Part shown: one piece after another, positions 2,754 through 58,147 of the stretch
Layout: each line of letters opens with the position of its first letter
Numbering within the stretch: position 1 is the stretch's first letter
IMG/VR virus record: IMGVR_UViG_3300045988_057866
Strand: one strand, 5' to 3'
From: a virus
Length of the DNA: 58,147 nt
Notes under the pieces: generated by a model
Seen by the model: the letters and a program-made list of their open reading frames with translations, nothing else
The model's database searches: none
What the model was told of the DNA's origin: nothing
Translations under genes and position numbers: made by a program

Positions 2754-4152
2754 CAGCGAGGCTATTTTGTATTATGCCGACCACCCGGTAGAGTTTGTCG
2801 AGGACGTTATCGGGGCGAAACCCGACGCACAACAAGCAAAGATACTCCGCAGCGTTGGAAAGAACCAGCTCACAACCGTAAGAAGCGGCCACGGCGTAGG
2901 AAAAAGTACGGTTGAGGCGTGGGTGGTTATTTGGTTTATGGTTACGAGGCCATTCCCGAAGATACCATGCACAGCACCGACGCAGCACCAGTTATTTGAT
3001 ATTCTTTGGGCGGAGGTCAGCAAGTGGTTGAGGCATAACAAAGCCCTCTCCAATGAGCTGATATGGACAAAGGAAAAGGTCTACATGAGAGGCTACCCGG
3101 AGGAATGGTTCGCAGTAGCCAGAACAGCCAGCAAGCCGGACGCTCTGCAAGGATTTCATGCGGACGACGTTCTGTATATCATAGACGAGGCCAGCGGTGT
3201 AGACGACAGTATATTTGAGCCGGTACTTGGTGCGTTATCAACACCGGGCGCAAGGCTTTTAATGTGTGGGAACCCGACGCAGTTGTCGGGCTTTTTTTAT
3301 GAGAGCCACACCAAGAACAGAGCGAGCTACGCAGCGTTCCACATCGACGGGCGGAACAGCAGCAGGGTATCGCAGGATTTTGTTCAGACAATCATCAATA
3401 TGTATGGGGAGGACAGCGACGTATTCCGTGTACGAGTGGCCGGAGAGTTCCCGTTGCAGGAGGACGATATTTATATTCCACTTTCACTCGTAGAAAATTC
3501 CATTATGACGGAGTTTTCTCCCCGAAAACACCCGGATTTGGTTCATATCGGGTGCGACGTTGCCCGTTTCGGAGACGATAAGACGGTAATCGGCTACAAG
3601 GTCGATGAAAAAGTCACGTTCTACAAGAAACGGCAGGGACAGGACACTATGAAAACAGCGGACGACATCGTTATGTTAGGAGAGGAGCTGATACAGCGAT
3701 ACAAGCTGACAGACCCTATCCCGGTAAAGATAGACGACGGCGGCGTTGGTGGTGGCGTGGTAGACCGCTTACGCCAGATAAAGAGGCACAACCCGGAGCG
3801 GTTCTGGTGGCTTGAGGTTTACCCGGTCAAGTTCGGCCAGAGGATAAAACACAAGTATTTCCACGACAGCACCACATTTATGATGTCGGTTGTAAAGAAG
3901 CTGTTACAGTCTTATGACGACGACGGCAGCAGGAAGCCGGTAGAACTGATATTGCCGGACGACAACGACCTAGTAGCGCAGCTTTCCGGCAGGAAGTATG
4001 AGCTGACAGAGGCCAGCAAGATAAAAATTGAGAGTAAGGACGCAGTTAAGAAGCGAGGGCAGCCAAGCCCGGACGAGGCCGACTGCGTTCTTCTTTTATG
4101 TTTACCAGTTAAGCCACCAAAAAAGCACAGGGAGGTGAGAAAGAATGGCTAA
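2746..4152 (+). CDS. terL: Terminase large subunit
   Basis: Walker A-like SGHGVGKST and Walker B-like VLYIIDEASGV are present, followed by a nuclease-like C-terminal half. Length is 468 aa. Confidence 0.9.
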   Translation: MLDSEAILYYADHPVEFVEDVIGAKPDAQQAKILRSVGKNQLTTVRSGHGVGKSTVEAWVVIWFMVTRPFPKIPCTAPTQHQLFDILWAEVSKWLRHNKALSNELIWTKEKVYMRGYPEEWFAVARTASKPDALQGFHADDVLYIIDEASGVDDSIFEPVLGALSTPGARLLMCGNPTQLSGFFYESHTKNRASYAAFHIDGRNSSRVSQDFVQTIINMYGEDSDVFRVRVAGEFPLQEDDIYIPLSLVENSIMTEFSPRKHPDLVHIGCDVARFGDDKTVIGYKVDEKVTFYKKRQGQDTMKTADDIVMLGEELIQRYKLTDPIPVKIDDGGVGGGVVDRLRQIKRHNPERFWWLEVYPVKFGQRIKHKYFHDSTTFMMSVVKKLLQSYDDDGSRKPVELILPDDNDLVAQLSGRKYELTEASKIKIESKDAVKKRGQPSPDEADCVLLLCLPVKPPKKHREVRKNG

Positions 4153-20811: not shown

Positions 20812-22035
20812 ATGGCACAAGGGGTTAGCCTTATTGTTGTCAAAGGAACACAAGGCTACGATGTGACCGAACTCGTTGAGCAGATTAAGTGGAGAGGCAG
20901 AAAAGGAAGCAGCTCCCGAACCCTTACGGTAAAGCTGATTGACGACGACGGTTACAAACACGCCCGAAGCGGGATTGATGTAGAGCAGGGGCAGCAGTGC
21001 CTATTCAATTACAACGGGAAAGAGCTTTTCCGTGGAATTATTATGAAGCAGGTGCAGAACAGCAAGAAGCGGCTCACGTTTACAGCCTATGACAACGGGA
21101 TTTACCTTGCGAATAACAAGGACACATTCACCTATGAGAATAAGACGGCCAGCGACGTGTTCAAGGATTGCTGCACGAGGTTCGGCCTGCCAATGGGAGA
21201 AGTTGCGAACTGCACTTATAAAATCCCGGAGCTTACCAAGAGTAAGACAACGGCGTTTGACGCTATTGCAGACGCTCTCAGCCTTGATTTCGACGCAACG
21301 GGCATAAGACACTACGTTTCCAGCGAAAAGGGCAAAATCAAGCTGCTCACGAGGCGAGAGAACATCATGCAGTGGGTTATCGAGGTAGGCCAGAACCTTT
21401 CAACCTACACCTATACCCGCAGCATTGAGGACATCAAAACCCGCATAAAGCTGGTATCGAAAGAGGGGACGACCATTGCGGAGAGGAAGAACAGCTCCCT
21501 CGAAAGCAAGATAGGCGTATTCCAGAACATCGACCAGCCGGACGAAAGCCTCACAAAGGCGCAGATAAATGACCTTATTGACAGTATGCTCGATGAACAG
21601 AGTACGCCGGAGCGCACTCTCGATGTTGAGGCGGTTGGGATACCAGATGTTATATCGGGTATCGGGGTTTATATCATCATCAAAGAATTAGGGCTGTCCC
21701 GGACGTTCTATGTGGACGAGGACACCCACATATTCGAGGACAACAAGCACACCATGACGCTGAAACTGAACTATGCAAACGACCTTTCCAAACCGGGAAA
21801 GGCCAGCGGAGCGCAGACCGGCGGAGGCGAGCATAAGGTAGGCGATATTGTTCAGTTCAACGGCGGATACCACTATGTAAGCAGCACAGCAGGAAGCCCG
21901 ACAGGAAGCAAGTGTGCAGCCGGTAAAGCAAAAATCACACTGGTTGCAAAGGGAGCAAAACACCCGTGGCATTTGATACACCAAGACAGCAGTTCAAGGG
22001 TCTACGGCTGGGTTGACGACGGAACATTCAGTTAG
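20812..22035 (+). CDS. XkdQ / gpD-like baseplate hub-associated tail protein with an SH3-like C-terminus
   Basis: Position and size (407 aa) in the xkd-like order. The C-terminal GDIVQFNGGYHYVSS...VYGWVDDGTF looks SH3-like. Confidence 0.6.
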   Translation: MAQGVSLIVVKGTQGYDVTELVEQIKWRGRKGSSSRTLTVKLIDDDGYKHARSGIDVEQGQQCLFNYNGKELFRGIIMKQVQNSKKRLTFTAYDNGIYLANNKDTFTYENKTASDVFKDCCTRFGLPMGEVANCTYKIPELTKSKTTAFDAIADALSLDFDATGIRHYVSSEKGKIKLLTRRENIMQWVIEVGQNLSTYTYTRSIEDIKTRIKLVSKEGTTIAERKNSSLESKIGVFQNIDQPDESLTKAQINDLIDSMLDEQSTPERTLDVEAVGIPDVISGIGVYIIIKELGLSRTFYVDEDTHIFEDNKHTMTLKLNYANDLSKPGKASGAQTGGGEHKVGDIVQFNGGYHYVSSTAGSPTGSKCAAGKAKITLVAKGAKHPWHLIHQDSSSRVYGWVDDGTFS

Positions 22036-24756: not shown

Positions 24757-25068
24757 ATGGCATTTTGGACAGATGTTTTCTTGAACAAAGTTCGACAGGA
24801 CTGGCTCAAGAGGATTGTGAAAATCCAGTATTACGCCGGAGGGGTCTGGTATGACGCAATGATTACCAATAAGACCATTGAGGGCGACACGCTGAAAATC
24901 ACAAGCCAGACAACAGACAGCAAAGCCCTTGTTGTAACCAGCGTAAGGCTGATTGACACGGGCGGAGACGTAGCCGGGCAGATTTCGGAGAGTATCACGA
25001 AACTTGATACGCAGGGTGTTATCACCCTTTGGGAGTTTCCGCTCTACGAGATTACCAGCACACAGTAA
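24757..25068 (+). CDS. Hypothetical tail-fibre-module protein
   Basis: A 103-aa ORF with a strong RBS. Confidence 0.5.
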   Translation: MAFWTDVFLNKVRQDWLKRIVKIQYYAGGVWYDAMITNKTIEGDTLKITSQTTDSKALVVTSVRLIDTGGDVAGQISESITKLDTQGVITLWEFPLYEITSTQ

Positions 25069-25083
25069 GGAGGTGAAGAACAG

Positions 25084-25620
25084 ATGTATAGCAATTTACA
25101 GTGGCTCGACCATGCAGTGACACCAGACCGCACATTCAAAATGCAGACCAACAGCGACGGAACGGTGACACTCACACCGGCGGGCAAAGTTATCCAGCAG
25201 GGAACGAACATGAGTGCGGCCAACTTCAACAACATGGAAATGGGGCTGACCGACCATGACCTCGCCGTGAAGATTTTTATTATGGCTCTTAGACAGATTG
25301 AGAGCCGCACGACGGACAGTGAGGCAGACATCGACGAGCTGGCAGCGGATATTCTGGCAGAGGTTACGCCGGAGGAGCAGACCGTAACACTGACAAATGG
25401 GGCGAGATACCCGTTCAACAGCAGCAGCAAGAGTGTGAGCCTCAAGGCGAACCGCAAGACCAAAAACTACACGGTGGAATATGAGGTAAGCAGCTCTGAC
25501 GGCAACGTGGGAGAAATTGTTGCAGGCAGCAAGGCTCTCAATGGCTTCTCTATGGCGTTCACCGGCAGCGCAAAGACCGTAACCGTAAAACTGAAAATCA
25601 GAGGAGGAATTATCGCATGA
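25084..25620 (+). CDS. Hypothetical tail-fibre-module protein
   Basis: A 178-aa ORF with a strong RBS. Confidence 0.5.
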   Translation: MYSNLQWLDHAVTPDRTFKMQTNSDGTVTLTPAGKVIQQGTNMSAANFNNMEMGLTDHDLAVKIFIMALRQIESRTTDSEADIDELAADILAEVTPEEQTVTLTNGARYPFNSSSKSVSLKANRKTKNYTVEYEVSSSDGNVGEIVAGSKALNGFSMAFTGSAKTVTVKLKIRGGIIA

Positions 25621-25985
25621 AAGTAATTGAGATTAACGAGGGTTCAAAAATCCCTTATGAAGTGAGCAAGACAAAGATTTGCTTTGACGACGACCTCACA
25701 ATCAACCTTGCAAAGAGACAGGAGGACTGGCCGGTACACATCGACATTCTCACCGACGGGGACGGTGTTCTTGTAACCGGAGCAGAGAGTGGCAACTACT
25801 ATGTTGCGCAGATTGACATTCCGGCAAGGGAATACAAGAAGCCGGAGGCAACAGAGGAGACAGCAACCGTCGAGGAGGGTGGAGAGCAGGCGGGTACAAC
25901 CGACGCTCCGCAGCCGGAGCCGTTACCGCTGGATATGGAAAAGGTTACGCTCACACTTTGGGCGTTGGTAAATTACGAGGCATAA
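25617..25985 (+). CDS. Hypothetical tail-fibre-module protein
   Basis: A 122-aa ORF with an overlapping start. Confidence 0.5.
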   Translation: MKVIEINEGSKIPYEVSKTKICFDDDLTINLAKRQEDWPVHIDILTDGDGVLVTGAESGNYYVAQIDIPAREYKKPEATEETATVEEGGEQAGTTDAPQPEPLPLDMEKVTLTLWALVNYEA

Positions 25986-26000
25986 GGAGGAAAAGAGACA

Positions 26001-27071
26001 ATGAGTAATTTTGATTTATCGAGCCTTGCGCTCGCTTCTGCGTTCCCTACGAACAAAATTCTGACAGACGACAAAGGGCTGCCGTCTGTCATGGTTTACA
26101 TTCCGAAATTTAAGATGTCAGACGTTATCGACGGAGCCGGGGACAGCACTCACCCGGCTTTTATTGTCAATGGAGTTGAAAAGGACGGCATTTACATTTC
26201 CAAGTACCAGAACGTCGCATACAACAACAGAGCCTACTCGCTGCCGGGTGAAGACCCGAAAGTAAGTATCACGGCAGACACCGCCCGTAAATACTGCGAG
26301 GACAAAGGTGCAGGCTGGCACATGATGTCCGCTATGGAATGGGGCGCACTTGCTTTATGGTGCAAGAAAAACGGCTGGATGCCTTGGGGTAATAACAACT
26401 ACGGCAAGGACACCAGAGAGACCATGAAGAAAGGCGTACCGGCCAAGTATGAGAGCGACGGCAGAACCGCTACTATCCTTACCGGCACTGGCCCGGTGGA
26501 GTATTCCCACAACAAGCAGCTCGACGGAATTTACGACCTCAACGGCAACGTGTGGGAGTGGAGCGACGGCATGAGACTTGTTTACGGTGAGCTGCAGGTG
26601 CTTGAGAACAACAACGCAGCAGACAGCTCCAACAGCAAGGCGGCCAGCTCCGCAGCATGGAAAGCAATCGACGGAACTACCGGCGCACTAATTGCCCCGG
26701 ACGGCAGCGGCACAACGACCAACTCTCTCAAACTGGATATGGTAAGCAGCAAGGGTAAATGGATTACCGGCACACTGTCCGACAAGAAAGATGAGGGACG
26801 AGGCTGCAGCTTCGCAAGCGTGACCGCAGATACCAATGTTTGCGACAAGGCGAAAGCGATTTTGTATGCGCTTGCTATGCTGCCGGATAGCACCACATTT
26901 GACTACGAGGGCGACTACTTCTGGTTTAACAACGGCAACGCCGAGCGTTTCCCGTTTCGTGGTGGCTTCTGGAGCTACGGTGCGCGTGCGGGTCTGTTCT
27001 GCACGTCGTTGAACAGCCCTCGTTCCAGTTCCTACTGGTACCTCGGCTTCCGCTCCGCTTTTTATGAATAA
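26001..27071 (+). CDS. DGR target protein 1: FGE-sulfatase / C-type-lectin-fold protein, probable receptor-binding tail fibre protein
   Basis: It carries GAGWHMMSAMEWGALALW and YDLNGNVWEWSDG motifs (FGE-like CLec fold). VR1 occupies the last 39 codons, and the gene is the last in the tail module. Confidence 0.85.
   Translation: MSNFDLSSLALASAFPTNKILTDDKGLPSVMVYIPKFKMSDVIDGAGDSTHPAFIVNGVEKDGIYISKYQNVAYNNRAYSLPGEDPKVSITADTARKYCEDKGAGWHMMSAMEWGALALWCKKNGWMPWGNNNYGKDTRETMKKGVPAKYESDGRTATILTGTGPVEYSHNKQLDGIYDLNGNVWEWSDGMRLVYGELQVLENNNAADSSNSKAASSAAWKAIDGTTGALIAPDGSGTTTNSLKLDMVSSKGKWITGTLSDKKDEGRGCSFASVTADTNVCDKAKAILYALAMLPDSTTFDYEGDYFWFNNGNAERFPFRGGFWSYGARAGLFCTSLNSPRSSSYWYLGFRSAFYE
26944..27059 (+). 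repeat. DGR variable repeat VR1
   Basis: It aligns without gaps to TR 27564-27679 (offset 620). There are 16 mismatches: 15 at TR adenines and 1 silent C-to-G at 27008. Confidence 0.9.
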
Positions 27072-27099
27072 CTGCAAACTGATTACTGATTAACTGACT

Positions 27100-27119
27100 G
27101 GGAGGACGGTAGTCCTCCC
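27100..27119 (+). promoter_or_regulatory. GC-rich hairpin downstream of VR1 (candidate DGR target-recognition hairpin; may also terminate the late operon)
   Basis: GGGAGGAC-GGTA-GTCCTCCC has a perfect 8-bp stem and a 4-nt loop. It starts 40 nt after VR1 ends and is followed by TATATTTTT. Confidence 0.6.
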
Positions 27120-27149
27120 TATATTTTTGTAAGCAGAGGAGCAGAGTTC

Positions 27150-27539
27150 ATGGCAGAAGCAGAAAAGCAGTACAGCAAGGAAACAACGAGTTTCCTGCTG
27201 AAAGAAAAGATTGCCGACATGATAAAGTACGGCAAAAAGGCTGTGGCGAATTTTCCTCGGCGAGAACGCCAGACGGCAGACGAGATACGCCGGACAATGC
27301 TCAACATGTACCGGCTATCAATCACTATCGAAAAGAAATATTACAAGAAAACCACTCTACAAGACCTCGATATTGAATTGGACGTGCTGCGACACCTTAT
27401 ACGGTTGGCGCAGGACAAAGACTACTACGACCAGAATATGGCACCGCCGTTATCATTCCATAAATACGAGGTTTGGAGCGGGCTTCTCAACGAGATAGGC
27501 CGTATCATTGGCGGATATATGAAATACGCAAAGCAATAA
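27150..27539 (+). CDS. avd: Accessory variability determinant (Avd-like four-helix-bundle protein)
   Basis: A 129-aa basic helical protein between the target gene and TR. The FPRRERQTADEIRR segment resembles the Avd / 23S-rRNA-IVS protein family. Confidence 0.8.
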   Translation: MAEAEKQYSKETTSFLLKEKIADMIKYGKKAVANFPRRERQTADEIRRTMLNMYRLSITIEKKYYKKTTLQDLDIELDVLRHLIRLAQDKDYYDQNMAPPLSFHKYEVWSGLLNEIGRIIGGYMKYAKQ

Positions 27540-27563
27540 AAAGTTTTGGGGAGTAAGCCGGAT

Positions 27564-27679
27564 AGCGTTTCCCGATTCGTGGTGGCAACTGGAACAACGG
27601 TGCGAATGCGGGTCTGTTCTACACGAACTTGAACAACCCTCGTTCCAATTCCAACTGGAACATCGGCTTCCGCTCCGCT
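27564..27679 (+). repeat. DGR template repeat (TR)
   Basis: A non-coding copy of VR1/VR2. In the VR reading frame the variable positions are AAC/AAT codons, and the frame opens with a TAG (27563-27565). I counted 25 adenines in the 116 bp by hand. Confidence 0.9.
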
Positions 27680-27893
27680 CTGCCTCTATGCCGGACGGTT
27701 GGGCGTAAATCTTACGGGATTGCGCACGGAGCATAGAGCCAAAGGGGTTTGCTTCCCTCCCCGGCCAGTACAGACCGTGGGAAAAGATTAAATTGCCGTG
27801 AAAACGCCCGAATATGGCGCAGGAGGAGGCGAGAATAACAGCTACGGACGAGGCGGAAACGTCTCACACGGCGGAAATGGAGAAAAGTTGAAT
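27564..27893 (+). ncRNA. Predicted DGR RNA (TR plus spacer region up to the RT start)
   Basis: This follows the TR-spacer-RT arrangement known from the Bordetella phage BPP-1 DGR. The spacer contains an 8-bp long-range helix, CTCTATGC (27684-27691) pairing with GCATAGAG (27731-27738). The transcript ends are not determined. Confidence 0.4.
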
Positions 27894-29213
27894 ATGACAA
27901 CGGAGATTTCACCAGAAAAGATACCGGGCATGGTGACGCTCGATGATATATACGATGAAATTTGCAGCTATGAGGGACTGTACCAATCACACCTTGAGGC
28001 CAGAAAGGGTAAGAGATACCGTGACGACGTTTTGGTGTTTACGGACAGGCTGGAAGAAAACCTTATTGAGCTGCAAAACGAACTTATTTGGCAGACCTAC
28101 AAAGTCGGCAAGTACAGGCAGTTTTATGTTCGGGAACCGAAGCTGCGCCTCGTAATGGCGTTGCAATACCGTGACAGGATTGTGCAGTGGGCGATTTACA
28201 GACAGCTTTACCCGTTCTACGACAAAATGTTTATTGAGGATTCCTACGCCTGCAGGAGGGGGAAAGGCTCCCATAAGGCGGCGGACAAACTTCAATACTG
28301 GCTGCGACAGGTCAGCAGGAAACCCGGAAAATGGTATTACTTGAAGCTGGATATAAGCAAGTATTTTTACAGGGTAGACCACCTTGTATTACTTGATATT
28401 TTGAGCCGGAGGATAAAAGACCCTCGGCTCTTTCGGCTTCTTAGGGAGATTATTAACAGCGAGGACACCCGTTTCGGGCTTCCGGCCGGTGTTAGCCCGG
28501 ACGAATGCCCAGAGGAGGACTGGCTGAGTGATGTAGGAATGCCGATTGGCAACCTCACATCACAACTATTTGCGAACATTTACCTCAATGAGTTAGACCA
28601 GCTCTGTAAACACGAGCTGCATTTACACTATTACATTCGCTATATGGACGATGTAATTATCCTTTTGCCAGACAAGAAAGAGCTGGCAAGAGTAAAGGCA
28701 ATCATTGAGGAATTCCTCAACGATTATTTGCACCTCGACCTCAATAACAAGACGGCTATACGCCCCTGCAGTCTCGGCATTGATTTCGTGGGCTATCACA
28801 TTTGGGCGACCCATAGGAAACTCAAGAAGCAGACGGCCCGCAAGATTATCCATGCGGTTGACTGGATGTGCGAACAGGGAGAGAAAGGCAATATGAGTAA
28901 AGAGGAGTTTGAGCGCAGAGTGGCCTCATACAGAGGCATTTTATTACACTGCGACAGCTATGGTCTGAGAAAGAAGCTGAACAGCATTTATTTTGACCAT
29001 GTTGTTGCAGAGGAGCCGGAGAAGCAGGAAGCCAAACAGAAGCCGGAGTGCGCCGAGAGAAAATGCTACACTTGCCAGAATTTCCGCAGAGAGTTTTTCT
29101 GCGGTTATGGAGCTTGCAGGTGCGACATTTACGGCTCTTTGGACGTAGACCAAAAGGAACGACACCCGGACAGAACAGCGGCGACTTGCCCGGACTATAC
29201 ACCAAACGAATAG
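27894..29213 (+). CDS. DGR reverse transcriptase with a Cys-rich C-terminal extension
   Basis: It has the DGR-type motif 4 IGNLTSQ (IGxxxSQ) and the catalytic YMDDVI box. The first in-frame ATG is 27894 (MTTEISPEK...). The ORF-track GTG at 27798 would add a G-rich leader overlapping the spacer RNA. Confidence 0.9.
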   Translation: MTTEISPEKIPGMVTLDDIYDEICSYEGLYQSHLEARKGKRYRDDVLVFTDRLEENLIELQNELIWQTYKVGKYRQFYVREPKLRLVMALQYRDRIVQWAIYRQLYPFYDKMFIEDSYACRRGKGSHKAADKLQYWLRQVSRKPGKWYYLKLDISKYFYRVDHLVLLDILSRRIKDPRLFRLLREIINSEDTRFGLPAGVSPDECPEEDWLSDVGMPIGNLTSQLFANIYLNELDQLCKHELHLHYYIRYMDDVIILLPDKKELARVKAIIEEFLNDYLHLDLNNKTAIRPCSLGIDFVGYHIWATHRKLKKQTARKIIHAVDWMCEQGEKGNMSKEEFERRVASYRGILLHCDSYGLRKKLNSIYFDHVVAEEPEKQEAKQKPECAERKCYTCQNFRREFFCGYGACRCDIYGSLDVDQKERHPDRTAATCPDYTPNE

Positions 29214-29890: not shown

Positions 29891-31408
29891 ATGGGACTTA
29901 CGGGAAAGAATGTTGAGGAAAAGATATGGAATTTCCTCATTGGTAAAGGGTTTAGCAAAGCCGGAGCTGCCGGGCTCATGGGGAATTTGTTCGCAGAGAG
30001 CGGCCTCGACCCGAAAAATTTACAGAACAGTTTCGAGAAGAAACTAGGACACACGGACGACAGCTACACCGCCGCCGTGGATAACGGCACATACAGCAAC
30101 TTTGTAAAGGACAGCGCAGGATATGGGCTTGCGCAGTGGACGTATTGGAGCCGTAAACAGAATATGCTTGAGTTTGCACGAGCCGCAGGCAAGTCTATCG
30201 GAGACTTGGAAATGCAGCTCGATTTTTTATTTAAGGAGCTTTCGGAGGGGTACAAGACGGTACTGGCGGCACTGAAAGCGGCAACGTCCGTAAAAGCAGC
30301 CAGCGACAATGTGTTGCTGAACTTCGAGAAACCGGCAGACCAGAGCGACGCAGTAAAAACAAAAAGGGCCAGCTACGGCCAGACCTACTACGACAAATAT
30401 GCAGGGACGGGCGCAGCGGCAGAAAACGGAGGTAACATTATGGGATATACAAACAGTTCACTCGTAGATTGCACAGTGAAAAGCCCGAACCACAGCGGGC
30501 AGAGAACGCACAAGATTGACCGTATCACACCGCATTGTGTAGTGGGCCAGCTCACGGCGGAGAGCATTGGCGGCTGCTTCACAAAGCAGAGCGTACGGGC
30601 CTCTTGCAACTACGGTATCGGCAAGGACGGCAGAGTAGTTCTCTGCGTAGACGAGAAAAACAGAAGCTGGTGCAGTTCCAGCGACGCCAACGACCAGAGA
30701 GCGGTAACGATTGAGTGCGCTTCTGATATGGCGGAGCCGTACACCATGAACACCGCAGTTTACAATAAGCTCGTGAAACTTATTGTTGACATCTGCAAGA
30801 GAAATGGACTGAACAAGGTTCTTTGGTTCGGAGACAAGGACAAGAGCCTCAATTACAGCCCGAAAGACGGCGAGTGCGTTCTGACCGTTCATCGTTGGTT
30901 TGCGAATAAGAGTTGTCCGGGCAACTGGCTTTACAGCCGCATGGGACAGCTTGCGACTGCGGTTAATGCAGAGCTTGGCAGCGGCAGTAACACCGGCGGA
31001 ACCTCTAAACCGGCCACAAAGACCGATACAGTAACGAGCTTCCCGGCGACACCGTTCACGGTAAAGGTTCTTATTGACGACCTCAATATCAGAACCGGCG
31101 CAGGCATGGGGTACGCAGTAACCGGCCATTATACTGGCAAGGGTACATTCACTATCACGGAGGTAAAGGGCGGTTGGGGCAAGCTCAAGAGCGGAGCAGG
31201 CTGGATTTATCTTGGAAACCCGTCTTACTGCACCGTACAGGGCGCAGCGGCGACCAACCGCACATACACCGTAAAGGCCGGGGACAGCCTTTGGGCTATC
31301 GCAGCAAAGCAGCTCGGCAACGGCAGCAGATACAAAGAGATTAAGAGCCTCAACGGACTTACCAGCGACGTAATCAACGCCGGACAGGTCTTGAAGCTCC
31401 CGAACTAA
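29891..31408 (+). CDS. Multidomain endolysin: lysozyme-like N-terminal domain, amidase-like domain, SH3-like domain, C-terminal LysM
   Basis: The N-terminal AGAAGLMGNLFAESGLDP...GYGLAQWTYWSR looks like a phage tail lysozyme. The central part has ITPHCVVGQ...AVTIECA...HRWFANKSCPG. The C-terminal LysM reads YTVKAGDSLWAIAAKQLGNGSRYKEIKSLNGL...GQVLKLP. Confidence 0.85.
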   Translation: MGLTGKNVEEKIWNFLIGKGFSKAGAAGLMGNLFAESGLDPKNLQNSFEKKLGHTDDSYTAAVDNGTYSNFVKDSAGYGLAQWTYWSRKQNMLEFARAAGKSIGDLEMQLDFLFKELSEGYKTVLAALKAATSVKAASDNVLLNFEKPADQSDAVKTKRASYGQTYYDKYAGTGAAAENGGNIMGYTNSSLVDCTVKSPNHSGQRTHKIDRITPHCVVGQLTAESIGGCFTKQSVRASCNYGIGKDGRVVLCVDEKNRSWCSSSDANDQRAVTIECASDMAEPYTMNTAVYNKLVKLIVDICKRNGLNKVLWFGDKDKSLNYSPKDGECVLTVHRWFANKSCPGNWLYSRMGQLATAVNAELGSGSNTGGTSKPATKTDTVTSFPATPFTVKVLIDDLNIRTGAGMGYAVTGHYTGKGTFTITEVKGGWGKLKSGAGWIYLGNPSYCTVQGAAATNRTYTVKAGDSLWAIAAKQLGNGSRYKEIKSLNGLTSDVINAGQVLKLPN

Positions 31409-32077: not shown

Positions 32078-32178
32078 GCCCTTTTACAGCATATCAGTTA
32101 AAAGTCCACAATTTCGGAACCTAAAATACAGCATAGTCAACAAATGTCCCATTTTGGGGTGTTATTTCTCTAATTTGG

Positions 32179-32207
32179 TTGACTTTGCCCCATATAGGGG
32201 CTATAAT
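32179..32207 (+). promoter_or_regulatory. Sigma-A-type early promoter TTGACT-17-TATAAT
   Basis: The -35 box is at 32179-32184 and the -10 box at 32202-32207, with a 17-nt spacer. The 17-mer TGGTTGACTTTGCCCCA is shared exactly with the promoter at 40466-40482. Confidence 0.7.
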
Positions 32208-32238
32208 GAGGTCACAGTCAAGGAAACAACAAAGACAA

Positions 32239-40409: not shown

Positions 40410-40468
40410 GCGATTGCCCCGAAAATCGGCAAAATATAAAAAACAACCGAATATTTCTGGAAAAATGG

Positions 40469-40497
40469 TTGACTTTGCCCCAAACAGGAACTATACT
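40469..40497 (+). promoter_or_regulatory. Rightward early promoter TTGACT-17-TATACT
   Basis: The -35 box is at 40469-40474 and the -10 box at 40492-40497. A TTGCCCC box lies immediately after the -35 box, as in the promoter at 32179. Confidence 0.65.
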
Positions 40498-40548
40498 ATA
40501 ATCACAGCAACCCAAACGGGGGCAAAACGATTGAGAAAGGAGCAAGAA

Positions 40549-46800: not shown

Positions 46801-47749
46801 AAAGGTGACAGCGGAGCTTGAGGCGGTAGAGGCAGCCAACAGAGAGTACGAGAAGTTACAGCAGGACATTTTGACAGCCAGAACATGGCTGGATAAGGAG
46901 AAACAGCTCCCAGTAGCGAGACAGCAAAAAGAGGCGGCAAGCCTGCGTGTTCTGGAATTGAGTGGAGAGATTGAAGAACTCGAAAAGGAACTCGAAGAAA
47001 CCCGCACAGAGCTTGAGGAGGAGCAGAGCAAGACCGTAGGAACGGCAGAGCTGCAGGCACAGGTAGCGGCAGCAGAGGCGGAAATCAAAGCCATGCAGGA
47101 CGCAGCGCAGGCGGCCACGCTGAAACTCGGAGGCTTGAAGAAACAGGCGGAGGAGCTGGCAGAGAAGTTACAGCAGGCGGCAGAGCTGCAGAACCGTGTA
47201 AACGTACTCGGAGGCAAGGCCGCCGGATATGAGGAGCTGAAAAAGGCGTTTTCGCAGGATGGTATTCCTCACAACATTATCCGCAGCATTATCCCGGTAT
47301 TTGAGGCCGCAGCAACGAATATCCTCGGACAGATGTCACAGGGTCGCATGAGCGTTGAGTTCGTGACCGAAAAGGTTCTGAAATCCAACAGCAAGAAAGA
47401 GGTAACGACCCTCGACATCATCATCAACGACGTAGACACCGGGCGACTTCCTTACATGAGCAGAAGCGGTGGCGAGAGGGTAAAAGCAGCACTGTCTGTT
47501 ATCCTTGCCCTTTCAGAGATTAAGAGCAGCAAGGCAGGCGTACAGCTTGGGTTCCTATTCATTGACGAGCCACCGTTCCTCGACGCTCCGGGCGTACAGG
47601 CATATTGCGACGCACTGGAAGCAATTCAGAACAGATACAGTAACCTCAAGGTTATGGCAATCACCCATGACCCGGCCATGAAGTCGAGATTTCCGCAGAG
47701 TGTTGATGTGGTAAAGACGGCAGAGGGCAGTAAGGTAATTTATGAATAG
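43886..47749 (+). CDS. Fused SbcD-like (Mre11) nuclease and SbcC-like (Rad50) ATPase
   Basis: N-terminal calcineurin-like phosphoesterase motifs: HTGDLH, IAGDIFH, GTPNHD, GHIHRP. These are followed by Walker A GSNGVGKSS, about 600 aa of coiled coil, the signature SRSGGERV and Walker B FLFIDEP. Confidence 0.85.
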   Translation: MAIRILHTGDLHIGNFPGPEENGENVRFKDICKCLDALVAGAKEQKPDIAVIAGDIFHQARVWSDRGLKEQQTAVRFLRELERICPVVVMRGTPNHDSEEQFKTLDSTFYGDDSVHIITEPDVGTYHSYDGKAVQIACLPGFDRGFYRAKHPGLSKEEENEVFTQSIADLIVGLKAQCDAGSPTVLVSHYTITGCNMESGQTAFFSQFEPVVYPDTLQAADFDLVCFGHIHRPQQLDGCKNTFYCGAISALNFNDEGQERGYWLHDVEDDGTVHSTFQQLPTRQYKTIRLKDEDVAEIINADRAEDKFPFTVTDVKGDIVRVLYDCTDEHNKAFNHTVYEAALYNVGGAFWVQEITPQKISITVDKKSMDADGTPESNLAEYITEKELTPERLGEIIELARPIIAEATEKATTERHTGLFVPVEIEVKNYRNYREETFSFEDIRFCTINGSNGVGKSSLFMDAMADALFEETREGELTGWICNDPDARSGAIKFTFKLGESLYRVTRTRQKSGKATLNISEFVEGEWVDRSKEKFKDTQQEIINIIGMDSLTLKACALIMQDQYGLFLQADKEARMNILGNILGLGIYAGMEELAADKATETNRQIRQLQDKTDVILSGLPDRAELEAQIAAEEETKATYEQAAAVKTTEIDGLKVKLNTQLEAASRVIKLNGKIATLGTQKATKEAAKTSQVGIVTSANTILAKEEEITAGVAAYNGLLEKEKELIKGKATYDNLEQRKKQLESAIDLAEKSAKELAQKKAAITLVKIGPLEAAISRAAELEEKHQQHESTAGKIAELEKGLPEYTEQRQAVLDAEAELERLEADYEKAKEKLSYRITTLRGKVELLDNSGCPDVEKASCKFLADALEAKKALPEAEAELTSLETEYAANRQSLSDTLRQAETVFSDKMHLPEEIEALRGDLRVLEAAEKEYSSLEAQRNELKLMQERSEELAKAQASAEETVTKGKAELEKVTAELEAVEAANREYEKLQQDILTARTWLDKEKQLPVARQQKEAASLRVLELSGEIEELEKELEETRTELEEEQSKTVGTAELQAQVAAAEAEIKAMQDAAQAATLKLGGLKKQAEELAEKLQQAAELQNRVNVLGGKAAGYEELKKAFSQDGIPHNIIRSIIPVFEAAATNILGQMSQGRMSVEFVTEKVLKSNSKKEVTTLDIIINDVDTGRLPYMSRSGGERVKAALSVILALSEIKSSKAGVQLGFLFIDEPPFLDAPGVQAYCDALEAIQNRYSNLKVMAITHDPAMKSRFPQSVDVVKTAEGSKVIYE

Positions 47750-47807
47750 AAAACATCACTTCTGGGGAGTTTTCTCCCCGGAAAACCCCGAAAAGGAGGT
47801 GTAATCG

Positions 47808-50657: not shown

Positions 50658-51794
50658 ATGGCAGAAATGAAAATTAGACACACGGAAACTGCAGGAGATT
50701 ACAGCTCCGAGACAGTATTCGAGGGAAAAGACCTTGAATTTATCCACGAGGATTTGCTCAAGACTTTGTTCGGAGCAAAGAATGCAGCACCGGCCCCGGA
50801 GGGAAAGAAAGAGGTCAAGCTCGCAGCGGTAGAGACTAAGCAGCCGGGAGTAGAGGGAAACGTCGTAGCAATTTACGACAACGCCGGTATTCCCTCATTC
50901 ATGTATAAATTTACCCGTGTAAGTAATAAGGAGCTGTTCGGCGGCGGCGATAAGCCTCACCCGGCATTTGTTATCGGCGGAGAGGTTTACGACGAGATTT
51001 ATATTTCAGTCTACCAGAACTGCGAAATTAACGGGAAGCCGTACAGCTTGCCATATCAGAAGCCGTGGACGAACCTTACCAATGATGAAGCGTCAGAGGC
51101 TTGCTTCAACAAGGGTGAGGGCTGGCACCTTATGACCGCAGCAGAGTGGGGACTGATTGCAAATATCAGCCTCAAGAACGGAACTCTCCCTCACGGGAAT
51201 ACCAACAACGGCCAGTACCACGCAGACGCAAGCGAAAAAGGTGTGAAGTACGACGGAGGCGACGGCAGAACCCTTACCGGCAGCGGCCCAGCCACATGGA
51301 CGCACAATCACACCCCGGAGGGCGTACACGATTTATGCGGAAACGTATGGGAAATGCTTAGAGGACTGCGTATCAAAGACGGCGTACTGTATGCAGCAAA
51401 GGACAACGACGCAGCACTCAACATCGACCTCACACAGGAGGGAGACGACTGGCACAGAATTAAGGACAATTCCGGCAATGTCGTAAAGGTATCGGTAGAC
51501 GGCAGTATCAAGATTACCACATACCCGTCCATTGAGCAGGACTACACCGGGGACTGCTGGGAGGACGTAGACATCGACTGCGAGAGCGAACAGCTCAAGG
51601 AACTTGCATTGTTCGCAGGGGAGCCAAAAGCATACCTCTATATCGACAGCACCAGCGGAGAATACTTCCCGATTCGTGGTGGCTACTGGCACTCCGGTGC
51701 GGATGCGGGTCTGTTCTGCACGCACTTGAACAACCCTCGTTCCAATTCCAGCTGGAACATCGGCTTCCGCTCCGCTTATTTCAAGAAACACTGA
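50658..51794 (+). CDS. DGR target protein 2: FGE-sulfatase / C-type-lectin-fold paralogue carrying VR2
   Basis: ATG at 50658 follows CAGGAGGAA. GEGWHLMTAAEWGLIANI and HDLCGNVWEMLRG motifs are present, and it is homologous to target 1 along most of its length. VR2 lies in the last roughly 43 codons. Confidence 0.85.
   Translation: MAEMKIRHTETAGDYSSETVFEGKDLEFIHEDLLKTLFGAKNAAPAPEGKKEVKLAAVETKQPGVEGNVVAIYDNAGIPSFMYKFTRVSNKELFGGGDKPHPAFVIGGEVYDEIYISVYQNCEINGKPYSLPYQKPWTNLTNDEASEACFNKGEGWHLMTAAEWGLIANISLKNGTLPHGNTNNGQYHADASEKGVKYDGGDGRTLTGSGPATWTHNHTPEGVHDLCGNVWEMLRGLRIKDGVLYAAKDNDAALNIDLTQEGDDWHRIKDNSGNVVKVSVDGSIKITTYPSIEQDYTGDCWEDVDIDCESEQLKELALFAGEPKAYLYIDSTSGEYFPIRGGYWHSGADAGLFCTHLNNPRSNSSWNIGFRSAYFKKH
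51666..51776 (+). repeat. DGR variable repeat VR2 (remote, about 24.1 kb from TR)
   Basis: It aligns without gaps to TR 27569-27679 (offset 24097). There are 8 mismatches, all at TR adenines (27587, 27593, 27596, 27597, 27605, 27621, 27626, 27654). Confidence 0.9.
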
Positions 51795-51818
51795 TAACTG
51801 CTTACTGAGCAACTGACA

Positions 51819-51860: not shown

Positions 51861-52181
51861 ACGGCCAAGCGAGGAGATATTTACTACATCAGAGGGACAG
51901 AGACGACAGGCAGCGAGCAGGGCGGAAACAGACCGGCAGTAATCGTGAGCAACAACACCGGGAACCACCATGCGCCGGTAGTAGAAGTCGTTTACCTTAC
52001 AACAAAGAGAAAGACCACCATTCCGACGCATGTTTATATCAATTCAGCCCGGAGGCCGTCAATAGCCCTCTGCGAGCAGATTGTAACGGTATGCAAAAGC
52101 AGGCTCAAGGAACATATCGGGAGCGTAAGCGTGGCGGAAATGAGAAAAATTGACCGGGCTTTGCAGACAAGTCTCGGAATA
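51861..52181 (+). other. MazF/PemK-like toxin module with no canonical start codon and no stop codon
   Basis: (ACG)AKRGDIYYIRGTETTGSEQGGNRPAVIVSNNTGN...PTHVYI...ALCEQIVTVCKSRL...MRKIDRALQTSLGI is a full-length PemK/MazF-like sequence. ACG sits where ATG is expected, 8 nt after AAAGGAGGCGGAGG. The frame runs on into the next gene. Confidence 0.6.
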
Positions 52182-52751
52182 CAGGAAACAGGAGGAGAGA
52201 ATATGCAGGTAACAATCAAAACCCCATTCGGGGAAATGAGCTTTAATATGACGCAGGACAAGGCCAATGACCTTATGAAGAAAGCACTGGACTACGCAAC
52301 CGGGCAGGAGGAGAAAGAGGAAACACCCGCCAGACCTGCCAGCGTACCGCAGGAGCCGCCGAAAACTATCAAGCCAAAGGATAAGCCACGCAGCAGAGTT
52401 GAGAGCCTTTTCGGGGATTTCAGAGGCGCAGGCGTAGCACAGGAAGAAAAGGAAGAACCGGAGGAGCCGGAGGAGTACAGAGGGTTTTTGCTTATTAAGT
52501 GCCAGCATTGTGGAAAGGTCAAAGGATTTTGCAGCAAAACCCCGATGTCAAAGTACACCTGTGAGAGCTGTGGAAAGGTTACGCCGCTGCATGGCCTTAA
52601 AATGGCCCATTTACATTGCAAATGCGGGAGTTACTGGAAGTACAAGACCAACATCACCGACGAAACATTTGACTACAACTGTTTGAACTGCGGAAACCCG
52701 GTAAGCATGCAGTTGAACAACCGCAGAAACACATACGTCACAATCGAGTAA
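51945..52751 (+). CDS. ORF as a gene caller would report it: truncated MazF-like region fused in frame to a zinc-ribbon protein (internal RBS and ATG at 52203)
   Basis: The first canonical start is GTG at 51945, inside the MazF-like domain. GGAGG at 52191-52195 plus ATG at 52203 suggest an independent start for the C-terminal part, which has CQHCGK...CESCGK...CKCG...CLNCGN motifs. Confidence 0.5.
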   Translation: MSNNTGNHHAPVVEVVYLTTKRKTTIPTHVYINSARRPSIALCEQIVTVCKSRLKEHIGSVSVAEMRKIDRALQTSLGIQETGGENMQVTIKTPFGEMSFNMTQDKANDLMKKALDYATGQEEKEETPARPASVPQEPPKTIKPKDKPRSRVESLFGDFRGAGVAQEEKEEPEEPEEYRGFLLIKCQHCGKVKGFCSKTPMSKYTCESCGKVTPLHGLKMAHLHCKCGSYWKYKTNITDETFDYNCLNCGNPVSMQLNNRRNTYVTIE

Positions 52752-52764
52752 GGAGGGCGGCGGA

Positions 52765-53445
52765 ATGATATTCAGAAAGATTTGCAATGACACCAGTACC
52801 ATGAGCGCAACCGAGCTGGCCCATAATTTTGTTTTCGTGAAGAACAGGGAAGCGTGGTACAGGGATTTTGACCGTGAAATCCCTGTAAGAGACCTTATGA
52901 GAGAGATTTGTGCGAAACACGCAGCACCGGCGGACGCAGACGAACTCACAGACGAGGAGCTGGACGAAATTCTTTACGATAACCTGCAGTTCGGTACAGA
53001 CGACCTTGAGGGCGTATTCGCATTACTGTATATGGCCCTTTTTGGAATGGCAGATGCGAGGGCGTGGCTGGAAAGATACGAGACCACGGGCCTGCCGACC
53101 ACGAACCGCCCGGAGGTATTGCAGGAGTGTGTAAACACCTACGGAGCAGAGGCACAAGTGGATATGGCGGTAGAAGAAATGAGCGAGCTTACAAAGGCAT
53201 TGCTCAAGTACCGTCGCAAAGAAGCACAGGGCAGCAAAGACCTCGAAGCAGCGAGAGAGAACATTCTTGAGGAGGTGGCGGACGTTATCATCATGCTTAC
53301 CCAGCTTATTATGATTTACGGAGGCAGAGACCTTGTGCAGGAGACCATAGAAAACAAAGTAGACCGACAGATAAAGAGACTTGCGAATACCGAGGGAGAA
53401 ACCGGCTCGGAAGTAGCGCAGGAGGTATTGCAGCCAGCGACATAA
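52765..53445 (+). CDS. MazG-like nucleotide pyrophosphohydrolase domain protein with an unknown N-terminal domain
   Basis: The C-terminal half has the paired acidic helices VEEMSELTKALLKYRR and ILEEVADVIIML typical of all-alpha MazG-type NTP-PPases. Confidence 0.65.
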   Translation: MIFRKICNDTSTMSATELAHNFVFVKNREAWYRDFDREIPVRDLMREICAKHAAPADADELTDEELDEILYDNLQFGTDDLEGVFALLYMALFGMADARAWLERYETTGLPTTNRPEVLQECVNTYGAEAQVDMAVEEMSELTKALLKYRRKEAQGSKDLEAARENILEEVADVIIMLTQLIMIYGGRDLVQETIENKVDRQIKRLANTEGETGSEVAQEVLQPAT

Positions 53446-58013: not shown

Positions 58014-58056
58014 ATACACAGTTTGGCGGAGTTATCCACAGACTGTGTATTTTTTT
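58014..58056 (+). terminator. Rho-independent terminator between the late regulator gene and the late operon
   Basis: ATACACAGT (58014-58022) pairs with ACTGTGTAT (58042-58050) and is followed by TTTTTT. The T-run corresponds to bases 3-8 of the window. Confidence 0.6.
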
Positions 58057-58147
58057 GTGGATAAATGACCCAAAACGGGACGGAAAGGAGTGAGAGCGTG
58101 AATATAAGGACGCTAAAAGCAACAAAATTAAGGGCAGCAGCGTACAA
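58049..58147. repeat. Second copy of the 99-bp terminal repeat
   Basis: It is identical to 1-99 and contains a duplicate of the motif copy and of the ParB-like gene start. Confidence 0.9.

Follow-up and report, generated by a model that had tools for sequence, protein, structure and literature searches.

A BPP-1-type diversity-generating retroelement with one template repeat and two probable targets in a temperate phage of the human gut

Prokaryotes have, to our knowledge, only one kind of natural machinery for targeted protein hypermutation, the diversity-generating retroelement (DGR). Gut phages are especially rich in DGRs, and those of temperate gut phages are common and well catalogued. 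Here, we analyze a DGR in the IMG/VR virus record IMGVR_UViG_3300045988_057866, a stretch of 58,147 nucleotides that we refer to as the window. An earlier note, made from the sequence alone, had proposed that a target gene, an avd gene, a non-coding template repeat (TR), and a reverse transcriptase (RT) gene follow the canonical mtd-avd-TR-brt architecture of Bordetella phage BPP-1, and the gene order is indeed target-avd-TR-RT. We put the probability at roughly 95% that this locus is a functional, or very recently functional, DGR of the BPP-1 type that rewrites two target genes, each through a variable repeat (VR1 and VR2). The type of system is well known, and the locus adds no new principle.

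The likeness to BPP-1 extends to most parts of the element. In both cases, the tail/lysis end of the structural module holds the cassette, the RT carries the IGxLTSQ and YMDD motifs (33% identity with the BPP-1 enzyme, Brt, in a direct comparison), the Avd proteins are of one family, the VR encodes a C-terminal part of a protein of C-type-lectin (CLec) fold, the TR is of AAY codon design, and the sequence after the VR includes a GC-rich 8-bp hairpin with a GRNA loop. The RNA is laid out alike, with a template:primer duplex right past the initiation region, an 11–12-bp duplex between the avd-TR junction and the spacer, and then a stem-loop and adenosines. By contrast, the BPP-1 target Mtd is a trimeric, three-domain protein, whereas the target here has a single domain; there are two targets, one of them 24 kb away; and there is no pair of imperfect repeats such as the BPP-1 IMH (initiation of mutagenic homing) and IMH*, TR/VR homology ending after a 17-mer. 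In addition, four ACTG motifs that are absent from BPP-1 follow each VR, the hairpin lies 40–42 nt from the VR instead of 4 nt, and the RT has an extra Cys-rich C-terminal tail of ~60 aa.

Other described systems share single features with this locus. Of the proteins with a solved structure, target 1 best matches TaqVP (PDB 5VF4; 4.6e-48), a single-domain, monomeric CLec variable protein of the FGE subtype from a Thermus aquaticus DGR, and the aligned part includes the C-terminal VR. TaqVP belongs to the chromosomal DGR of a thermophile, whereas the protein here is encoded by a phage, placed after tail genes, and duplicated. The gut phage DGRs nd4 and nd12 (“tentaclins”; Baykov 2023) also serve two CLec-containing targets from one TR; there, the cassette contains both target genes, and the VR of target 1 is N-terminal, with Ig domains after it, whereas here the targets are paralogues with C-terminal VRs and the second is found among early genes. 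In the survey of Wu 2018, many phage-associated DGRs have non-adjacent targets within 50 kb, and in some IMH does not differ from IMH*, which means that recognition must reach farther downstream. Both features fit the present element, which in these two respects is therefore within known variation. In the same survey, just 34% of DGRs had a high-confidence inverted repeat downstream of IMH; by contrast, such hairpins are nearly universal in the clade studied here and are preceded by an ACTG array. Among annotated phage records, the closest RTs (52–60% identity) are those of Clostridium phage Saumur, Faecalibacterium phage FP_Lagaffe, Bacillus phage BalMu-1, and Dulem virus 37, which are, like this one, gut or Firmicutes temperate phages.

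An ungapped alignment of TR with VR1 over 116 nt reproduces, base for base, the mismatches and adenine positions that had been listed from a hand alignment, and the sixteenth mismatch, the only one outside adenines, is C27628 to G. Tabulated by TR base, a comparison proposed in advance, at least 15 of 16 mismatches at A has a hypergeometric probability of 1.7e-11 given 25 adenines in 116 nt. Read in the VR frame, TR becomes RFPIRGGNWNNGANAGLFYTNLNNPRSNSNWNIGFRSA, in which we count 10 AAY codons, in line with the AAY design that had been suggested, and 14 A-containing codons in all. No substitution at a TR adenine can create a stop codon, and the 14 codons allow up to ~1.5e14 protein variants per target. 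TR, VR1, and VR2 each end in the A-free, GC-rich 17-mer TCGGCTTCCGCTCCGCT, which has exactly three copies in the window (27043, 27663, and 51760; 0.05 expected by chance), and TR/VR homology stops abruptly after it. This IMH-like 3′ end is thus invariant in all three repeats, as first described, but, being identical in TR and VRs, it cannot alone mark the recipient. Two other statements needed adjustment. VR1 lies near the C-terminus of target 1 but is not its last 39 codons, since three further codons (F Y E) separate its end at 27059 from the stop. Similarly, all four parts of the complete DGR placed at 26001–29213 hold, and the open reading frames (ORFs) of target 1, Avd, and RT are present in the ORF listing, but that interval omits target 2, VR2, and the elements that follow the VRs.

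Close relatives reveal how these repeats change over short times. Five IMG/VR contigs and several human gut metagenome contigs are 96–99% identical to the window. A strict A-to-N scan of IMG/VR with the window's TR returned nothing; the relatives have C for T at TR position 80, and a metagenome scan allowing Y (C or T) at this position yields 10 loci. In one relative (L001; relatives carry locus numbers of this form), BLAST finds the sequence identical to the window over 24757–26000, with 3 of 943 nt differing in the non-VR part of target 1. Specifically, its VR1 has 22 mismatches to that of the window in 116 nt, against 3 in the preceding 2187 nt. Across the close lineage, all 21 VR copies are distinct (21/21) while the 11 TR copies represent only 3 sequences, and every TR-adenine column compared (24/24) varies among the VRs. 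VR differences among sister genomes are not spread evenly over the four TR bases. Furthermore, where the TR is polymorphic at non-A positions (columns 9, 80, and 104), VR1 and VR2 of a genome carry the base of their own TR, which is direct evidence of information flow from TR to VR. A-specific mismatches, and VRs that are all distinct beside a near-invariant TR, bear out the adenine-directed mutagenic retrohoming that had been proposed, and this comparative test gives strong evidence, at the level of sequence, that mutagenic retrohoming is ongoing in the lineage.

The same pattern extends to distant relatives. Scans with the RT recover 80 loci in IMG/VR and 66 in GTDB genome representatives, and the bacterial records with a related RT are mostly Lachnospiraceae and other Clostridia. 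We compared 127 loci with enough flanking DNA, whose RTs are 36–99% identical. Nearly all have the arrangement VR-(avd)-TR-RT with A-biased mismatches; therefore, by genomic context, the RT clade is a DGR clade. Pooled over the clade, changes at template adenines (884 A to G, 450 A to T, and 306 A to C; 1640 in total) compare with 223 at other bases. Within the close lineage, all six singleton VR changes at non-A template positions, two from C and four from T, yield G on the sense strand. These are found in the window, L004, L005, L082, and L084 at TR columns 40, 57, 65, 66, 67, and 106, and several adjoin mutated adenines. A bias of non-A changes toward G is not seen in the clade-wide pool.

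Table 1. Positions of the DGR parts and of associated elements in the window.
Feature	Position	Strand	Remarks
Target gene 1, single-domain FGE-type CLec-fold variable protein, 356 aa	26001..27071	+	Pfam FGE-sulfatase 3.4e-8
VR1, variable repeat (recipient)	26944..27059	+	16 mismatches to TR, 15 at TR adenines
4x ACTG array after VR1, candidate target-site recognition element	27071..27096	+	
GC-rich 8-bp hairpin/cruciform, GGTA (GRNA) loop	27100..27119	+	40 nt after VR1
avd (accessory variability determinant), 129 aa	27150..27539	+	Pfam bAvd 2.6e-24
Upstream strand GGGGAGTAAGCC of 12-bp long-range RNA duplex, analogue of the BPP-1 avd:Sp “cPRT Stop”	27548..27559	+	Pairs with 27746–27757
TR, non-coding template repeat (donor)	27564..27679	+	25 adenines
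Structured spacer of the DGR RNA	27680..27800	+	
DGR reverse transcriptase, 439 aa	27894..29213	+	Pfam RVT_1 5.9e-24
Target gene 2, paralogous FGE/CLec variable protein, 378 aa	50658..51794	+	Pfam FGE-sulfatase 1.4e-5
VR2, second variable repeat	51666..51776	+	8/8 mismatches to TR 27569–27679 at adenines
4x ACTG array after VR2	51790..51815	+	
GC-rich 8-bp hairpin, GATA (GRNA) loop	51819..51838	+	42 nt after VR2

The proteins of the cassette agree with the first description. In addition to its Pfam match (Table 1), the gene described as Avd-like scores above the cut-off of the NCBIfam equivalog model DivGenRetAVD (92 vs 80 bits), and its product is 25% identical to BPP-1 Avd. The RT motifs that had been read from the translation are located at 28545–28565 (IGNLTSQ) and 28641–28652 (YMDD). 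Its best PDB match is the 328-aa chain 8ub7_A (1.6e-48, vs 2e-19 for the best group II intron RT), which aligns to the RT exactly as BPP-1 Brt does, and the closest solved RT is Brt. Based on the Brt match, the motifs, and the genomic context of its relatives, the RT can be assigned to the DGR clade on sequence grounds.

The RT also ends in a Cys-rich extension (residues ~383–439; ~29040–29210) of the form ERKCYxCxxF..FCGYxACxC..GSLDVDQxERHPD..C, which 15 of ~80 related DGR RTs share; the rest, and Brt, lack it. Comparison of this tail with Pfam and PDB gives nothing significant (best E-values 3.7 and 4.6), and a protein search with it returns two uninformative fragments only. The tail may bind metal.

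The RNA of the locus can be compared with the BPP-1 RT-Avd-RNA particle, in which a template:primer duplex between TR and spacer ends at the priming adenosine, followed ~2 nt later by an 11-bp duplex between the avd end and the spacer that acts as the stop for cDNA (complementary DNA) synthesis, and then by a stem-loop and adenosines. In the window, a template:primer-like duplex pairs 27679–27690 with 27732–27743, an invariant AAAGGGG is found at 27741–27747, and GGGGAGTAAGCC, the 12 nt located just upstream of TR, pairs with GGTTTGCTTCCC (27746–27757). A hairpin (27758–27782) and an A-rich tract come next in the spacer, and a UACG-capped stem at 27703–27725 is a candidate recognized by eye. 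Of 80 distinct related loci, 65 have an upstream stop-like duplex of 11 bp or more, formed by 51 different pairs of sequences; in a control with mismatched partners, 10 bp is reached in only 12% of cases. An RNAalifold consensus of the TR 3′ end and the following 120 nt from 39 diverse loci has 10 pairs with compensatory changes; sliding the partners lowers the share of paired cells from 96.4% to 68.5% or less and the covariation score from 0.46 to 0.17 or less. Both helices, template:primer and stop, are thus supported by covariation in the layout of the BPP-1 ribonucleoprotein. Reasoning from BPP-1, we expect priming at one of the adenosines in AAAGG (candidate A27743), which would place the start of cDNA synthesis at the very end of TR/VR homology. 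Rfam reports no family anywhere in the window, and no curated RNA family covers the DGR RNA.

Two elements set the flanks of the VRs apart from that of the TR. The first is the ACTG array, with motifs spaced 7–8 nt, which lies between the VR end and the hairpin; the two arrays in Table 1 are the only ones in the window, and each stands just past a VR. At least three ACTG motifs are present in 57 of 82 distinct VR flanks of the clade vs none of 81 TR flanks. BPP-1 lacks such an array, and the searchable literature yielded no account of one. The second element is the hairpin. The stems after VR1 and VR2 differ at three positions with pairing kept, and 109 of 118 clade VRs have such a hairpin 30–45 nt downstream, mostly with GATA or GGTA loops and with many stem sequences, including compensatory changes across the clade. 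The window's own TR has neither an ACTG array nor such a hairpin downstream. However, 41 of 117 clade TR flanks hold some GC hairpin with a 4-nt loop, so the hairpin alone is not fully discriminating. A conserved hairpin or cruciform with 7–10-bp GC stems and GRNA loops, 4–34 bp from the VR, was defined by experiment as a requirement for efficient homing in DGRs (Guo 2011), and the hairpins found here fit this consensus in stem and loop. A T-run, TATATTTTT, follows the VR1 hairpin, which may also act as a terminator. We rejected the idea that the hairpins are mere terminators because the VR2 hairpin has no T-run, and termination cannot be their shared function.

Since array and hairpin follow the VRs and not the TR, they are a testable candidate for the recipient mark where IMH and IMH* are identical, which is relevant to the engineering of DGRs for directed evolution. 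They would be the VR-specific signals of this locus. That target-site recognition throughout this Clostridia-phage DGR clade relies on a sequence-defined module of ACTG array and GRNA hairpin without a BPP-1 counterpart is a bolder proposal, which we put forward tentatively and with the odds against it. If true, a portable tag would extend diversification by one TR to a second protein, non-virion and encoded amid early genes, and phage DGRs would serve something besides receptor binding.

Several points weigh against a functional DGR that works as in BPP-1. VR1 carries one non-A difference (C27628 to G), and NCBIfam, which has no DGR-RT model, gives as the top match of the RT a group II intron model (TIGR04416, 135.6 bits vs a cut-off of 300). 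The hairpins, 40–42 nt past the VR end, are slightly beyond the 4–34 bp of Guo 2011, and that of VR1 could be a simple terminator given its T-run. The IMH-like GC-rich segment is the same in TR and VRs, unlike IMH and IMH* of BPP-1, and the discrimination between donor and recipient therefore rests on elements whose function is presumed. Lastly, the current activity of this particular genome is presumed from comparison with relatives.

This last point favours a fossil cassette—i.e. one that was active in ancestors of the lineage and is now inactive in this genome, with its VRs frozen. The single non-A change of VR1 could then be a later point mutation, and whether one individual genome is active lies beyond the reach of its sequence. 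On the other hand, all ORFs are intact, the catalytic motifs are present, and the RNA duplexes and both target-site hairpins are preserved. In addition, genomes 99% identical to the window carry other VRs, and diversification is therefore more recent than almost all other divergence between them. We thus regard a fossil as improbable, and an element still, or until very recently, at work as the better account.

A different question is whether VR2 takes part. VR2 lies in another gene module, 24 kb from the cassette, and it matches TR only from 27569 on, its 5′ homology being 5 nt shorter. Both facts would suit a real DGR that acts on VR1 only, the gene with VR2 being a paralogue that resembles TR by descent. 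Such an origin is very hard to reconcile with the differences between VR2 and TR, all of which fall on TR adenines, or with the VR2 copies of the relatives, all of which differ at A positions and share with their own TR its non-A polymorphisms (e.g. L096 with the TR of L002). One VR2 is identical to its TR, VR2 is followed by the same ACTG array and GRNA hairpin as VR1, and phage DGRs with a non-adjacent target elsewhere within 50 kb are on record (Wu 2018). The two-target layout is also kept in relatives down to 72–79% RT identity. Retrohoming into both VRs is, as such, far more probable than a lone VR1. The VR2 that equals its TR, that of L176 (human gut contig OODO01000081.1), is identical at every adenine, and represents either an unmutated transfer or a freshly reset target; unmutated transfers also occur in BPP-1 homing assays.

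Finally, that the repeats are not those of a retroelement but paralogous C-terminal modules and a pseudogene fragment, diverging normally beside an unrelated RT (group II intron, retron, or Abi/DRT), can be dismissed: the top NCBIfam match is to a group II intron RT and weaker ones are to Drt, retron, and AbiA models, but all are far under their cut-offs (besides TIGR04416, Drt3a 59 vs 200, Drt2 42 vs 390, retron 33 vs 235, and AbiA 18 vs 250 bits), Rfam finds no group II intron RNA and no retron RNA in the window, an Avd gene is present, the closest solved RT is Brt, TR is non-coding and invariant while the VRs vary, and the A-specificity of the mismatches (P about 2e-11) is already enough to refute it. 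None of the grounds on which the earlier note would have abandoned its DGR interpretation applies, among them a spread of mismatches over all four bases or an RT of one of those groups.

Taken as a working DGR, the locus would operate as follows. An RNA that runs from the 3′ flank of avd through TR and the spacer would fold by the two pairings 27679–27690 with 27732–27743 and 27548–27559 with 27746–27757. By homology with BPP-1, RT and Avd would prime cDNA in cis from a spacer adenosine of the invariant AAAGG motif; the RT would copy TR from its GC-rich 3′ end, misincorporate opposite the 25 adenines, and stop at the upstream duplex. The cDNA would then replace the homologous VR in two genes, VR1 beside the cassette and VR2 at a distance of 24 kb, the recipients being told from the donor by the sequence past the 17-mer, namely the fourfold ACTG array and the GC-rich hairpin with a GRNA loop. 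Two TaqVP-like proteins of CLec fold would thereby be randomized at their C-terminal ligand-binding face, where 14 codons, including the 10 AAY codons, are subject to change.

Both targets are predicted to have the expected fold. Target 1, which follows baseplate and tail genes, matches phrog_2889 (4e-126), and its Pfam and TaqVP matches, the latter including the VR, uphold its first description as a protein of FGE/CLec fold. Target 2 matches the same PHROG (4e-105), is 37% identical to target 1, and is found downstream of the cassette among early/replication-side genes. As such, sequence comparison places the VR at the C-terminus of a CLec-fold protein of the FGE subtype in both targets. We recognized no signal peptide and no tail-attachment domain in the sequence of either target. 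The receptor-binding role initially proposed for target 1 is thus in keeping with its position after tail genes, but the single-domain, TaqVP-like protein shows no recognizable means of attachment to the tail; judged by gene position, it probably functions in host recognition. Seen directly in the sequences are the layout of the parts, the adenine-specific mismatches, the passage of information from TR to VR in the lineage, and the covarying RNA pairings; cis-priming, the initiating nucleotide, and the parts played by the ACTG array and by the two targets are deduced from homologous systems.

The locus is an unusually clean example of its kind, with a complete genome and one TR that serves two paralogous targets in different gene modules, and near-identical phages supply over 20 natural variants of the VRs. 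Modestly new are the ACTG array, the covariation support for the BPP-1 RNA model in a clade of Firmicutes phages, the conserved second target among early genes, and the unannotated Cys-rich C-terminal tail of the RT. The duplexes seen by cryo-electron microscopy in BPP-1, which are needed for cis-priming and termination, recur by covariation in a distant clade, and this supports the generality of the mechanism.

The window has an exact 99-bp direct repeat at its ends (1–99 and 58049–58147) which marks it as a complete, circularly assembled genome of 58,048 bp. Upstream of the cassette are terminase, portal, tape-measure, baseplate, and tail protein genes; downstream are small membrane proteins and an endolysin (29891–31408), which confirms the placement at a tail/lysis junction. 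Farther on, the genome encodes a serine integrase, an SbcCD-like nuclease, and a DnaC-like loader. It is a temperate phage of the human gut, and its host is probably a member of the Lachnospiraceae or of other Clostridia. The RT scan of GTDB representatives yielded no close host; the best RT match is only 81%, in a Lachnospiraceae metagenome-assembled genome, and the host is therefore placed only roughly. Megablast of the cassette against annotated phage records also finds no close named phage, the best being a partial match to Dulem virus 37 (73.7% over 23% of the query). ARAGORN detects no tRNA in the window. Near-identical cassettes are found on long human gut contigs of 92–276 kb (L171/L172, L175, and L170/L176), which suggests that the phage is integrated there as a prophage in bacterial chromosomes.

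Elsewhere in the genome, a 42-nt direct repeat (32176–32217 and 40466–40507; 79% identical) contains a TTGACT..TATAAT-like promoter and may be a repeated regulatory site that flanks the lysogeny region. A 44-nt repeat (3491–3534 and 47747–47790; 73% identical) is centred on the terminator-like hairpin GGGGAGTTTTCTCCCC. The ORF directly after target 2 (51945–52751) encodes a protein whose N-terminus is MazF-like (phrog_1936, 2e-18) and whose C-terminal half is Cys-rich, and the next gene (52765–53445) encodes a MazG-like nucleoside triphosphate pyrophosphohydrolase. Lastly, the C-terminal 75 residues of the tail protein at 20812–22035 (phrog_400) match part of the endolysin family phrog_20388, to which the endolysin of the phage also belongs, and may form a tail-associated lysin or a binding module.

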